Source of the DNA: Candidatus Bathyarchaeota archaeon
GTDB taxonomy: Archaea > Thermoproteota > Bathyarchaeia > 40CM-2-53-6
Reading direction: 5' to 3'
DNA length: 64,000 nt
Assembly: GCA_963726255.1 (NCBI GenBank)
Contig: CAVSBL010000002.1
Coordinates: 1,088,001 to 1,152,000 of the forward strand
Each line of letters opens with the position of its first letter. Position 1 is the stretch's first letter. This document shows, in pieces, positions 5,423 through 40,350 of this stretch. The notes beneath the pieces are model-generated. The model did no database searches. It had not been told where the DNA came from and saw only the letters and a program-made list of their open reading frames with translations. The position numbers and the translations under genes are program-made.

Positions 5423-5580
5423 CGGAGGGACTCATCACCCTCAGAGAGTGGCGGTTGGGTTACCGCTTTCTCTCTTCTTCGCATAATGTTACCGTGCAGG
5501 CATATTAGTGAATGTCGCGAATAAGTTTTGCTTCCAGAAACCTAACCTTGCGCATCCAGAAAGGAAAGTGGTGGGCCCGG
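5423..5580. repeat. ~150-bp direct repeat, copy 2, abutting the tRNA 3' end
   Basis: near-identical to 1887-2042. Confidence 0.9.
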
Positions 5581-5675
5581 AGGGATTCGAACCCTCGACC
5601 AGCAGGTTCCTCCGCTATGCATATGAGCTTCGACTTTCAGTGTCTGTCGCTCTAGCCTAGCTGAGCTACGGGCCC
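5569..5675 (-). tRNA. tRNA-Ile2(CAU) with two introns (30/31: 5629-5643; 37/38: 5608-5621)
   Basis: GGGCCCG/CGGGCCC-ACCA acceptor; removing two BHB-like introns gives a 78-nt cloverleaf with a CTCATAA loop. Confidence 0.85.
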
Positions 5676-7560: not shown

Positions 7561-7710
7561 TGGTGCTCCGGGCGGGATTTTCAGCGATTGAACCATCGCA
7601 TTCGAACCCGCGTCGCTGACTCTCTCCGCAAACTCGAGAGGCCAGCATACTCTCGGCGACATACGCCTTGACCGGGCTATACTCGGTAGCTGAACCGCTT
7701 CTACCGGAGC
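7561..7710 (-). tRNA. tRNA-Glu(CUC) with four introns (10/11: 7682-7700; 20b/21: 7652-7668; 37/38: 7622-7634; 59/60: 7578-7600)
   Basis: removing four BHB/BHL-flanked inserts gives a fully paired 78-nt cloverleaf GCTCCGG...CCGGAGC-ACCA. Confidence 0.88.
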
Positions 7711-7752
7711 CCCAACTAACCCGGAGCAATTGGACTAACGCTGTCCCACGGT

Positions 7753-38134: not shown

Positions 38135-39400
38135 TCAGGGCGGGAGCCCCCCGATCAGCGTCACATCTACGTTTTGCCCTCCCTCAATAGCTATAATCCC
38201 TTCATTGAGAGTGACGATTCCGTTCGCCCTAACCATGCTCATCAGAACTGAAGAACGTTGTAGTTTGAGCGGCTCGGCAACTAACCCCCGCCCATCACGC
38301 TTTACCATGACCCTCACAAAGGTCCTGTTACCGGGCGCCCCCGTGATTCTTTCACTCAAGAGCGCACTGACAGTTGGTTCGAACAATTCCTGAACGCCCA
38401 ACATCTTCGCGAGGACAGGACGTACGAAGGTTCGGAATGCGAAGAATGCGGAGACTGGAAACCCAGGCAGTGAAAATACGGCTTTGCCGTTCACCACTGC
38501 CAAGCCTGTTGGCATGGCAGGCCTCATGGCAACCCCATGTACCAACATACCCGGCTTGCCTAAGGTGTTGACACACTCAGGGACGAGATCCCTTTTGCCG
38601 ACCGAAGACCCTGCGCTTACAATGAGCGCATCGCATGTCTTCAATCCACTCCTCATAGCGTTCTTAATGCTGGATTCCAGATCCTTGACAATTCCCAGGT
38701 CAACGGCTCTCGCCCCCAATTCCTGAAGCATACCGGATATGATTGCCCTGTTGATGTCGATAACTTTGCCCGGGCTACGGCTACTGATCGAATCTACGAG
38801 CTCGTTACCAGTTGATATGACAGCTACGCGTGGCTCCCTAGCAACATACACTCTCGACAATGCTAGTACCTTCGATATGCCAATATCCTGCGGCCGGAGG
38901 CGCATCCCCTTCTTGAGCACAACCGTATGTGGTGTAACGTCCTCACCCTTCATCGCGATGCTCTGGCCGGGCGTAGTCGGGACGTGGACTGCGATTCTGC
39001 CTGCCGGAAGCTTGGTCGTTCGCTCAATCATCACGACGGCGTCTGCACCGGGGGGAATCACGCTCCCGGTTGCGACAGCAACGCTCTCTCCCGGCTCAAC
39101 CTGCAGTCTGGGTAAGGCGCCTATCCTGCTTTCCCCAACCACCCGAAGGATTGCGGGTTTGTCTTGAGAAGCATTCTTCACGTCTTCAACGCGGACAGCG
39201 TATCCGTCCATCACCGAGCGATCAACTGGTGGCAGGTACTGATTTGCAACGACGTCTTTTCCAAGGTATCGTCCCAAGGCCCGCTGAACAGCGACGGATT
39301 CGAGCTTGACAGTCGGCTCTCCGAGGGCAGCGAAAAGCATCTCAAGCGCGTCGTCAACCCTAGTTAGTTTTTGGAAACCTTCGGTGTGCAAATGACTCAT
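38135..39400 (-). CDS. moeA: molybdopterin molybdenumtransferase
   Basis: SVMDGYA, STGNEL, LPGFP. Confidence 0.93.
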   Translation of the reverse strand: MSHLHTEGFQKLTRVDDALEMLFAALGEPTVKLESVAVQRALGRYLGKDVVANQYLPPVDRSVMDGYAVRVEDVKNASQDKPAILRVVGESRIGALPRLQVEPGESVAVATGSVIPPGADAVVMIERTTKLPAGRIAVHVPTTPGQSIAMKGEDVTPHTVVLKKGMRLRPQDIGISKVLALSRVYVAREPRVAVISTGNELVDSISSRSPGKVIDINRAIISGMLQELGARAVDLGIVKDLESSIKNAMRSGLKTCDALIVSAGSSVGKRDLVPECVNTLGKPGMLVHGVAMRPAMPTGLAVVNGKAVFSLPGFPVSAFFAFRTFVRPVLAKMLGVQELFEPTVSALLSERITGAPGNRTFVRVMVKRDGRGLVAEPLKLQRSSVLMSMVRANGIVTLNEGIIAIEGGQNVDVTLIGGLPP

Positions 39401-39472
39401 GGGATTAACACTAATCCGACGGGAAGATATTATGCGCGGCAGATATCTAACACACTCTGCCGGTGGCCGCCC

Positions 39473-39748
39473 ATGGCCGATTCGCTGACCACGACGATTA
39501 CAATCCTTGGGGCGCTCGTCGTACTAATTGGGCTAATCTTCTGGATCCGAAGAGTTCGACAAAAAGGAGACGGCGGGCCTTTCATCGAACTTGAGAAATT
39601 GGTCAAGTGCAGGTCCTGCGGTTCTCTGATACCGGAAGGTGTCCGCAAATGCGCTTTTTGTGGCGTCTGGCAACGCCAAGAGGATTCCGGAGAACAAATA
39701 AATGGCCCAAAGAGCAATGGCACGAACGCCGCCGAAATGGCACACTAG
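39473..39748 (+). CDS. membrane-anchored zinc-ribbon protein
   Basis: N-terminal TM; CRSCG...CAFCG; stop overlaps tRNA G1. Confidence 0.7.
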   Translation: MADSLTTTITILGALVVLIGLIFWIRRVRQKGDGGPFIELEKLVKCRSCGSLIPEGVRKCAFCGVWQRQEDSGEQINGPKSNGTNAAEMAH

Positions 39749-39883
39749 CCGCCGTATGCGCATTCGCGTAGACGACAGCTCAGTGGTGGAGCAGCGGACC
39801 CTTCTCAGTAAGGGGCTGAAGCTGTTAAGCGGGCAGACACAGCTACCCGTTGGTCGCAGGTTCGAGCCCTGCCGGCGGCGCCA
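39748..39883 (+). tRNA. tRNA-Asn(GUU) with three introns (8/9: 39756-39776; 30/31: 39798-39820; 37/38: 39828-39844)
   Basis: removing three BHB-flanked inserts gives a fully paired 75-nt cloverleaf GCCGCCG...CGGCGGC-GCCA. Confidence 0.9.
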
Positions 39884-39933
39884 ATAAATCCTGCGATGAC
39901 CTTTTCTCGGCTAAAGGAGTTCCGTTCATTCAG

Positions 39934-40350
39934 ATGCGAATACGTGAATTTCAACTCAATGATTACGGCGATGTTGTGAACGTTTGGAATACAGCCGGGC
40001 TCATTCTCCGTCCAGGCGACGAATTTGAGGGAGTCAAGTTGAAGTTGCAAAGAGACCCTGACCTATTCTTGGTCGCCGAAGACGAAGATGAGATTGTGGG
40101 GGTCGTCATGGGAGCTTGGGATGGAAGGCGCGGCTGGATCAATCATCTTGCAGTGGTACCCAGTCATCAAAGACGTGGTATAGGCCAGGCGCTCATCGGG
40201 GAGGTTGAGAAACGCCTAATTGAGAAAGGGGCAAAGAAGGTTAACGCGCAGATCTACCGGTGGAACACAAAATCCTTTGATTTCTTCAAGTCAGTTGGTT
40301 ATGAGGTTCATTCCGACCTCGTAATGATAGGAAAGCACCTTAAGAAATAG
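39934..40350 (+). CDS. GNAT acetyltransferase (YpeA-like)
   Basis: DGRRGWINHLAV, QRRGIG. Confidence 0.9.
   Translation: MRIREFQLNDYGDVVNVWNTAGLILRPGDEFEGVKLKLQRDPDLFLVAEDEDEIVGVVMGAWDGRRGWINHLAVVPSHQRRGIGQALIGEVEKRLIEKGAKKVNAQIYRWNTKSFDFFKSVGYEVHSDLVMIGKHLKK

Follow-up and report, generated by a model that had tools for sequence, protein, structure and literature searches.

A transfer RNA (tRNA) gene for asparagine, tRNA-Asn(GUU), occupies positions 39748-39883 on the forward strand of a 64,000-nucleotide (nt) stretch of genomic DNA from a member of the Bathyarchaeia (C2:1088001-1152000, contig CAVSBL010000002.1; hereafter the window), which forms part of a 2.42 Mb assembly in 5 contigs with 98.51% completeness and 9.34% contamination. 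The gene consists of four exons and three introns, has its CCA encoded, and is preceded by a short leader that contains a second copy of the 5' strand of the acceptor stem. The best explanation of this arrangement, which we hold at a probability of roughly 0.68, is a three-intron tRNA-Asn that is transcribed from its own promoter and whose leader copy aids splicing of the intron between tRNA positions 8 and 9 (8/9). Comparison of related sequences makes a cis-acting helper for splicing the most likely identity of the copy. The splice motif in question, the bulge-helix-bulge (BHB), consists of two 3-nt bulges flanking a helix of 4 base pairs (bp), each strand being cut after its second bulged base. 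The parts of the locus, in window coordinates and with G1 as the first base of the tRNA, are as follows.

39371-39748, forward strand: upstream open reading frame (ORF) of 125 amino acids by its longest start, whose tail crosses the tRNA promoter and leader and whose TAG ends on G1.
39696-39703, forward strand: TATA-like box (AAATAAAT), A/T-rich, kept in relatives and situated within the upstream ORF's 3' end.
39728-39734, forward strand: leader copy GCCGCCG, duplicating the acceptor 5' strand and placed where transcription probably starts.
39735-39747, forward strand: leader spacer of 13 nt, whose 3' end lengthens the outer helix of intron 1 into the D-arm.
39748-39755, forward strand: exon 1, tRNA positions 1-8 (GCCGCCGU).
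39756-39776, forward strand: intron 1, 21 nt at 8/9, a relaxed BHB whose central helix would be drawn from acceptor bases 3-6.
[quoted passage not shown]
39798-39820, forward strand: intron 2, 23 nt at 30/31, a strict hBHBh' motif.
39821-39827, forward strand: exon 3, positions 31-37, GCTGTTA, with the anticodon GUU inside.
39828-39844, forward strand: intron 3, 17 nt at the canonical position 37/38.
39845-39883, forward strand: exon 4, positions 38-76, with the T-arm, the 3' acceptor strand CGGCGGC, discriminator G and the encoded CCA.

Exon 1 at 39748-39755 reads GCCGCCGT, and the 21-nt insert adjoins it on the 3' side. Joined by coordinate, the exons yield a 75-mer, in which ARAGORN recognises tRNA-Asn(gtt) across bases 1-75 and our own cloverleaf check finds 7 pairs in the acceptor stem, 4 in the D-stem, 5 in the anticodon stem and 5 in the T-stem; its anticodon loop CTGTTAA and variable loop of 5 nt give the GUU anticodon, 7-nt loop, U33, purine at 37 and class-I form that define tRNA-Asn(GUU). 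A script of ours that lists BHB candidates and retains the sets whose removal leaves a strict cloverleaf (the BHB solver) returned a single solution among 74 candidates, with introns after positions 8, 30 and 37. The three-intron structure proposed for this tRNA by a first-pass annotation made from the letters alone is thus borne out by the ARAGORN call on the spliced 75-mer and by the sole solver solution, and the intron lengths (21, 23 and 17 nt) and helices that it listed are all present in BHB register. The four exons are colinear within 136 nt, and the upstream element is a copy of the 5' strand with no 3' half, so that the gene is neither split nor permuted. No second Asn tRNA locus was found in the genome, there being no other GTT anticodon arm accompanied by a T-arm and both long exons matching one place; because no other locus can supply the GUU anticodon, the gene is expected to be expressed and fully spliced. 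Judged in this way, it is the single functional Asn gene of the genome, real, essential and carrying three predicted introns.

The motifs differ in quality from one intron to the next. Intron 1 has a central helix CGCC/GACG with 3 of 4 pairs and one C.A mismatch, an inner helix TGCGC/GCGTA of 5 bp and an outer helix AGC/GCT of 3 bp; intron 2 has a central helix CAGC/GCTG with all 4 pairs, an inner helix of 5 bp and an outer one of 2 bp; intron 3 has a central helix CTGT/ACAG, also with all 4 pairs, and an inner helix of 1 bp. The outer helix of intron 3, which is the anticodon stem, reaches its 7 bp only once intron 2 is gone, and since intron 2 interrupts it, intron 2 is predicted to be removed before intron 3. 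In a shuffle control of 20000 trials per intron, with the observed quality of central plus inner helix as the criterion, matches arose 7 times for intron 1, never for intron 2 and 348 times for intron 3.

These features were followed through 34 orthologous loci from 10 families of the order (the locus is present in 34 of 41 related genomes, this one included). The solver resolved 22 of the 34, the remaining 12 falling below its criteria, and introns at 8/9 and 30/31 occur in all 22, with the 37/38 intron in 17 and missing from 5. Exon 4 is 100% identical in 8 of the 20 aligned relatives and at least 89.7% identical in all 20. For intron 1, parsed by anchors in 31 of the 34 loci, GACG forms the 3' strand of the central helix in 26 cases and GGCG in 5, the latter repairing the C.A mismatch and so giving a perfect central helix in those loci; the inner helix takes 19 distinct sequences and keeps at least 3 bp in 27 of 31, and the contiguous outer helix measures 2-7 bp. 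The compensatory changes are our own tally and not a formal covariation test, but the central-helix variants and the 19 inner helices together support the 8/9 register as the likely one.

The leader copy is the most constant part of the sequence upstream of the gene. GCCGCCG is found in 34 of 34 loci with all 7 bases identical, 12-21 nt upstream of G1, and stays invariant throughout the 10 families while the spacer and the upstream flank diverge freely; the copy within exon 1 is likewise followed by T in all 34. The spacer measures 5-14 nt in the 31 parsed orthologues and ends in TA in 12 loci and in GA in 11; in the predicted fold of the precursor, its CACUAG pairs with the D-arm. The first-pass annotation had described the leader as an imperfect 20-nt tandem repeat that supplies the acceptor copy. 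By eye, units at 39717-39736 and 39737-39756 do share AATGGCAC and GCCGCCG, and Tandem Repeats Finder scored no such repeat in the leader (0 rows); the copy itself stands, but conservation is confined to the 7-nt GCCGCCG and does not extend to the repeat as a whole. A target-site duplication of intron 1 was also considered as the source of the two copies and rejected, as they flank the spacer rather than the intron.

A promoter of the tRNA's own is suggested by the A/T-rich box at 39696-39703, which the first-pass annotation had passed over when it saw no clear TATA box. The box is kept in 20 of 20 aligned relatives, including those that show no similarity to the upstream coding sequence. In ordinary tRNAs of this genome the distance from box centre to G1 is 26-34 nt; measured to G1, it is 47-51 nt for Asn, 40-42 nt for tRNA-Cys and 44-46 nt for tRNA-Glu(CTC), two further genes with a leader copy that are described below, and measured to the leader copy it is 27-31, 28-30 and 27-29 nt, respectively. 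Because the distance from box to copy equals the ordinary distance from box to G1, transcription would begin at or next to the leader copy, and tRNA-Asn is probably transcribed from its own TATA-type promoter, to go by this conserved position.

The arrangement recurs elsewhere in the genome. A scan for an acceptor strand followed, after a short gap, by the same strand plus T and, further on, by its complement plus N and CCA gave 5 matches, whereas the reversed sequence yielded 0. Of the 5, four are tRNAs in which a TATA-like box precedes the first copy by about 25 nt, namely tRNA-Asn, tRNA-Cys(GCA), tRNA-Glu(CTC) and a tRNA whose acceptor strand is GGGGCCG; their leader copies, GCCGCCG, GCCGGGG, GCTCCGG and GGGGCCG, each equal the acceptor strand of their own tRNA, and the central helix of the first intron is in every case formed from acceptor bases. 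The further tRNAs with an intron close to the acceptor stem are the following.

Solver parse: tRNA-Cys(GCA) with leader copy and introns at 8/9, 37/38 and 48/49.
Window 7561-7727, reverse strand: tRNA-Glu(CTC), whose leader copy GCTCCGG stands 17 nt before G1 and for which four BHB introns are predicted.
C2:266772-267025, reverse strand: GGGGCCG tRNA (locus L084), 229 nt, discriminator A, leader copy 25 nt before G1.
C2:1670787-1670957, reverse strand: class-II tRNA, probably Leu, with a 33-nt intron at 8/9 and a leader copy GCGGGGT, matching in 6 of 7 bases, 22 nt before G1.
C2:2253994-2254133, forward strand: tRNA-Leu(GAG) (locus L085), with a 24-nt BHB intron at 8/9, a central helix of 4/4 and an inner helix of 7 bp.

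The introns of tRNA-Glu(CTC) lie at 10/11 (19 nt), in the D-loop (17 nt), at 37/38 (13 nt) and at 59/60 (23 nt). The L084 tRNA is only partly parsed, with introns predicted at 10/11 (28 nt) and 59/60 (25 nt), 0 full solver solutions and about 100 nt left in the middle; read by eye, this middle holds a loop CTCCAGA (perhaps with the anticodon CCA) and the words ATGACGA and CTGA, which resemble C/D boxes. The copy of the class-II tRNA was missed by the scan, which requires an exact match. Among the six tRNAs of the genome with an 8/9 or 10/11 intron, four thus have exact copies, one a 6/7 copy and one, tRNA-Leu(GAG), none, and no leader copy precedes any of the 25 whose D-arm directly follows the acceptor strand.

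The same association holds across related genomes. Within the order, tRNA-Cys is interrupted and accompanied by the copy in 22 loci and uninterrupted without it in 6, with 0 discordant cases and 2 that could not be assigned; tRNA-Glu(CTC) is interrupted with the copy in 19, uninterrupted without it in 9 and uninterrupted with it in 1, with 1 left unassigned. In locus L127 the Glu copy reads GCTCTGG, and its pairing with the 3' strand is kept through a G.U pair. Outside the order, the copy was found within 60 nt of none of 19 uninterrupted tRNA-Asn loci (from 18 of 401 sampled genomes of the phylum). All 5 genomes of the order in that sample carry GCCGCCG..GCCGCCGT in a tRNA context; the bare pattern matched 114 of the 401, and its reversed control also matched many GC-rich genomes. 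The leader copy is strongly associated with 8/9 and 10/11 introns across three tRNA families, although kin genomes are not independent, and the association is to be counted as about four to six origins, not some 75. In four uninterrupted tRNA-Asn loci from other families of the same class (L037, L038, L039 and L042), TTGTTG or TCGTTG stands 11-12 nt before G1; these words could pair with CGGCGGC through G.U and may be decayed leader copies or chance.

How the copy might act is suggested by folding. In the minimum-energy fold of the precursor with its leader, the leader copy pairs with CGGCGGC and the exon strand pairs with the intron and D-arm; when the leader is omitted, the normal acceptor stem forms. 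When each pairing is forced in turn, 31 of 31 orthologues favour the conformer in which the leader copy is paired, with a margin of 3.3-13.3 kcal/mol (mean 8.2). The genome encodes two endonuclease-type proteins of 188 and 187 amino acids, each with PF01974 and PF02778 and with both EndA domains, the N- and the C-terminal one; the first has 3p1z_B, 3ajv_B, 2cv8_A and 2zyz_B as its closest PDB chains and the second is more divergent. RtcB (571 bits) and a full-length archaeal RNase P RNA (173.6 bits) are encoded as well.

The anatomy of the gene, the geometry of its splice motifs, their conservation and covariation, the association of leader copies with 5'-proximal introns and the presence of the enzymes are shown by the sequences. 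Beyond these, we infer where transcription begins, what role the leader copy has in pairing, how the steps are ordered and how the closing hand-over comes about, as follows. The transcript would start at or next to the leader and hence open with a spare acceptor 5' strand. Its precursor would be unable to fold as a cloverleaf, and the two-subunit endonuclease would have to cut the three BHB modules and RtcB to join the exons. The 8/9 motif would use acceptor bases 3-6 for its central helix, bases 1-2 and the last leader bases, paired to the D-stem, for its outer helix, and the intron hairpin for its inner one. A normal acceptor stem would sequester bases 3-6; by taking the 3' acceptor strand instead, the leader copy would free the exon strand for the motif, tether the 8-nt exon 1 during cleavage and ligation, and delay RNase P. 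Intron 2, a self-contained strict motif, would leave before intron 3, whose outer helix could form only afterwards. Last, the exon strand would displace the leader copy from the 3' strand, and the leader would be removed by RNase P; for this hand-over the tRNA would presumably depend on its tertiary folding or on being captured by RNase P. A purely thermodynamic switch, in which the exon strand takes the 3' strand as soon as intron 1 is lost, was considered and set aside, as nearest-neighbour energies disagree with it.

Several observations weigh against this account. The leader-paired form remains favoured after removal of intron 1 (mean 6.6 kcal/mol, 31 of 31 orthologues) and even when the tRNA is fully spliced (3.8 kcal/mol), so that the hand-over for RNase P is left unexplained by nearest-neighbour energies, and in the unconstrained fold exon bases 6-8 pair with the intron outside the BHB register. 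The stretch occurs in 20 sequencing runs, only one of them RNA and available as contigs, and the sole RNA-library contig at the locus (381 nt, from a related strain with 14 other letters and 4 gaps) is unspliced, has neither joints nor read ends, and bears on neither splicing nor the transcription start nor expression. All Asn loci with the leader copy form one clade and so represent a single evolutionary event for Asn. The catalogue of tRNAs in the genome is partial: of 1488 seeds, the 51 with a T-arm signature were retained, of which 26 were solved, 18 with a good cloverleaf score. In one member of the same genus (locus L134) the 5' region of tRNA-Glu(CTC) is uninterrupted, yet the leader copy is kept; the 10/11 intron seems to have been lost recently and the copy to have stayed. 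Finally, tRNA-Leu(GAG) has no acceptor copy despite its perfect 8/9 motif, and the copy is therefore not indispensable. Its leader does form a 10-bp helix with the D-arm (UUUGGCCUGG/CCAGGUCAAA), and an A/T box lies 61-64 nt before G1. Because this tRNA appears to use a leader:D-arm helix in place of the acceptor copy, the general rule would be that the leader belongs to the splicing substrate, of which the acceptor copy would be the commonest form and not the sole one.

The last two loci also speak for the strongest alternative, in which the leader copy is a scar, an old first strand left in place when a new first strand and an intron were inserted or duplicated, and now transcribed without any role: tRNA-Leu(GAG) is predicted to splice without a copy, L134 keeps one after losing its 10/11 intron, and in Asn the copy sits where an ordinary tRNA would have its G1 relative to the box (27-31 against 26-34 nt). 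A sequence free of function would hardly be expected to retain 7 identical bases at 34 of 34 loci in 10 families amid a diverging spacer and flank, and the sole variant, that of L127, still pairs. Moreover, the copy is absent from 6 of 6 uninterrupted Cys and 9 of 10 uninterrupted Glu loci of the same order, which suggests that it is lost once the intron is gone. We therefore regard a mere scar as unlikely, while recognising that an origin of this kind and a present function are not mutually exclusive.

We think it somewhat better than an even bet that such leaders make up an undescribed cis-acting class, a 'spare acceptor strand' that would occupy the 3' strand and let the true first strand build the 8/9 or 10/11 motif, tether exon 1 and place splicing before RNase P, and that would have arisen independently in several tRNA families of the Bathyarchaeia. 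The combination that would define such a class is found here: the acceptor copy lies no more than about 25 nt upstream of G1 and accompanies an intron whose central helix uses acceptor bases.

A further alternative denies the tRNA a promoter of its own and has it cut from the mRNA of the upstream zinc-ribbon gene, as the first-pass annotation had thought probable. The ORF at 39371-39748 (Zn_Ribbon_1 match with E = 0.0034 and 17.6 bits, below the cut-off of 25 bits) does cross the leader, and G1 at 39748 is indeed the last base of its TAG, as had been reported; the RNA-library contig from the related strain also spans both flanks, running unbroken from 118 nt upstream to 90 nt downstream, as either read-through RNA or contaminating DNA would. 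Against such an origin, the box persists in all 20 aligned relatives, also where similarity to the coding sequence is lost, with the spacing of other tRNA promoters, and among the ten relatives with a resolved ORF the stop coincides with G1 in L001, L002 and L004 only, an overlap limited to this genome and a pair of close relatives, while in the other seven the ORF ends 37-84 nt before G1; in 3 further relatives no ORF could be resolved. These points make an mRNA origin improbable, although some transcripts of the coding sequence may still read through into the tRNA. The fusion of the tRNA to the end of a coding sequence holds true of this genome but not as a conserved arrangement, and the overlap is, to judge from the relatives, a recent, lineage-specific and incidental extension of the ORF tail across the tRNA promoter. 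In loci L006-L013, several zinc-ribbon ORFs stop about 45 nt before G1, and by alignment reading this stop is a TAA within the TATA-like box, where a single A/T-rich word may double as stop codon and promoter element.

One could also take the leader copy as the true first strand of the tRNA, with a single intron of 40-41 nt (the spacer, the second copy and what we call intron 1) being removed from a leaderless transcript that needs no RNase P. The predicted start does coincide with the first base of the leader copy, and the mature acceptor would read alike from either copy, the two being identical. This reading is very unlikely: in 31 loci, the leader copy is followed by A (24 loci), G (6) or T (1), while the exon copy always has T (U8) after it; reading by hand shows neither an inner helix next to the leader copy nor a BHB register that would join the two copies; and RNase P RNA is present. 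An intron at 7/8, or a composite one of 41 nt with the leader copy as exon 1, was likewise considered and rejected.

Standard annotation passes over the gene. The Rfam tRNA model, at a relaxed threshold, matches only 39777-39872, as model positions 9-63, at 23.6 bits against a cut-off of 29 bits; the match has 49 nt against 9 in the consensus, and the acceptor stem is lost where the first insert sits. ARAGORN with default settings finds zero tRNAs across the 64-kb window, which holds at least three. That standard tools miss the gene and that its Rfam score is below threshold might suggest a decaying pseudogene whose 'introns' are chance insertions, but this is hardly credible for the only Asn tRNA locus found, with near-invariant exons, intron helices covarying across 31-34 relatives and motifs that shuffles rarely match. 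Weak Rfam matches in 39500-40100 (Plastid-ycf2, cow-rumen-1 and sR19; E = 0.75-6.8) were dismissed as chance.

The three-intron tRNA-Asn with its leader copy has partial counterparts in the literature. Up to three introns per archaeal tRNA gene have been described (PMC4033280, PMC8450103), and the text of one survey lists the non-canonical positions 3/4, 20/21, 22/23, 25/26, 29/30, 30/31, 45/46, 53/54, 56/57, 59/60 'etc.' (PMC4090602); 8/9 is not among the positions named in that text list, its figure and the primary position tables being a separate matter. The four predicted introns of tRNA-Glu(CTC) exceed the 'up to three' stated in PMC8450103 and stay within the up to five intervening sequences per tRNA gene given in an Asgard preprint of October 2026, whose main text uses the word 'leader' 0 times and which leaves introns of the acceptor stem and its junctions to a summary in a supplementary note. 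Close in build are the multi-intron tRNAs of the Thermoproteales (Pyrobaculum, Thermofilum; PMC4033280, PMC4090602, PMC8450103), which, according to the passages on them, likewise have several short introns at positions both canonical and non-canonical, including 30/31, with strict or relaxed BHB motifs, a two-subunit endonuclease of broad specificity and ordered removal, the last being already known for closely spaced introns (PMC8450103). The present genes belong to the Bathyarchaeia instead, and no conserved leader copy of the acceptor strand figures in those passages on the Thermoproteales. Asgard tRNAs, from a different phylum, resemble them in having multiple introns at BHB-compatible sites and a large share of genes missed by standard annotation, as far as the preprint's text goes.

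Sequence outside the mature tRNA is put to use in two other known arrangements. In the split tRNAs of Nanoarchaeum equitans and Caldivirga maquilingensis, as portrayed in the sections consulted (PMC4090602, PMC4033280, PMC3218864), outside sequence likewise builds the motif and holds the exons; the gene here, in contrast, is a colinear one-piece gene, its helper copies an exon strand directly and would pair with the other acceptor strand, instead of being a leader that complements a trailer, and would presumably be removed by RNase P rather than by the endonuclease. [quoted passage not shown] In searchable text (figures, supplements and Sugahara et al. 2008 lying outside it) no publication was found on a leader or acceptor-copy helper or on Bathyarchaeia tRNA introns, and a leader copy acting as a splicing helper is, as far as can be searched, unpublished.

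Were the proposed role correct, some archaeal tRNA introns would need sequence outside the mature tRNA for their splicing, and a programmed alternative fold would order processing, with splicing first and 5' trimming later. This would also help explain how introns persist beside the acceptor stem despite the competition there between the tRNA fold and the splice motif.

For annotation, the consequences are more immediate, as standard pipelines under-call and mis-call tRNAs in this Bathyarchaeia lineage. At threshold, the Rfam tRNA model finds 17 tRNAs in the whole genome, nearly all of them 90-126 nt, and numbers so few and lengths so great mark the genome as intron-rich; ARAGORN with introns allowed reports 35, several of which have implausible introns of 566-2802 nt. 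With 17 tRNAs found by Rfam genome-wide and none by default ARAGORN in 64 kb, inferences of completeness and codon usage from tRNAs would be unreliable for Bathyarchaeia unless made with methods that are aware of introns and read the leader. The only tRNA in the window that passes the Rfam threshold, on the reverse strand at 5572-5675 with 48 bits, has 38 nt against a consensus of 9 in its anticodon region, and is called Gln(ctg) by ARAGORN when introns are allowed.

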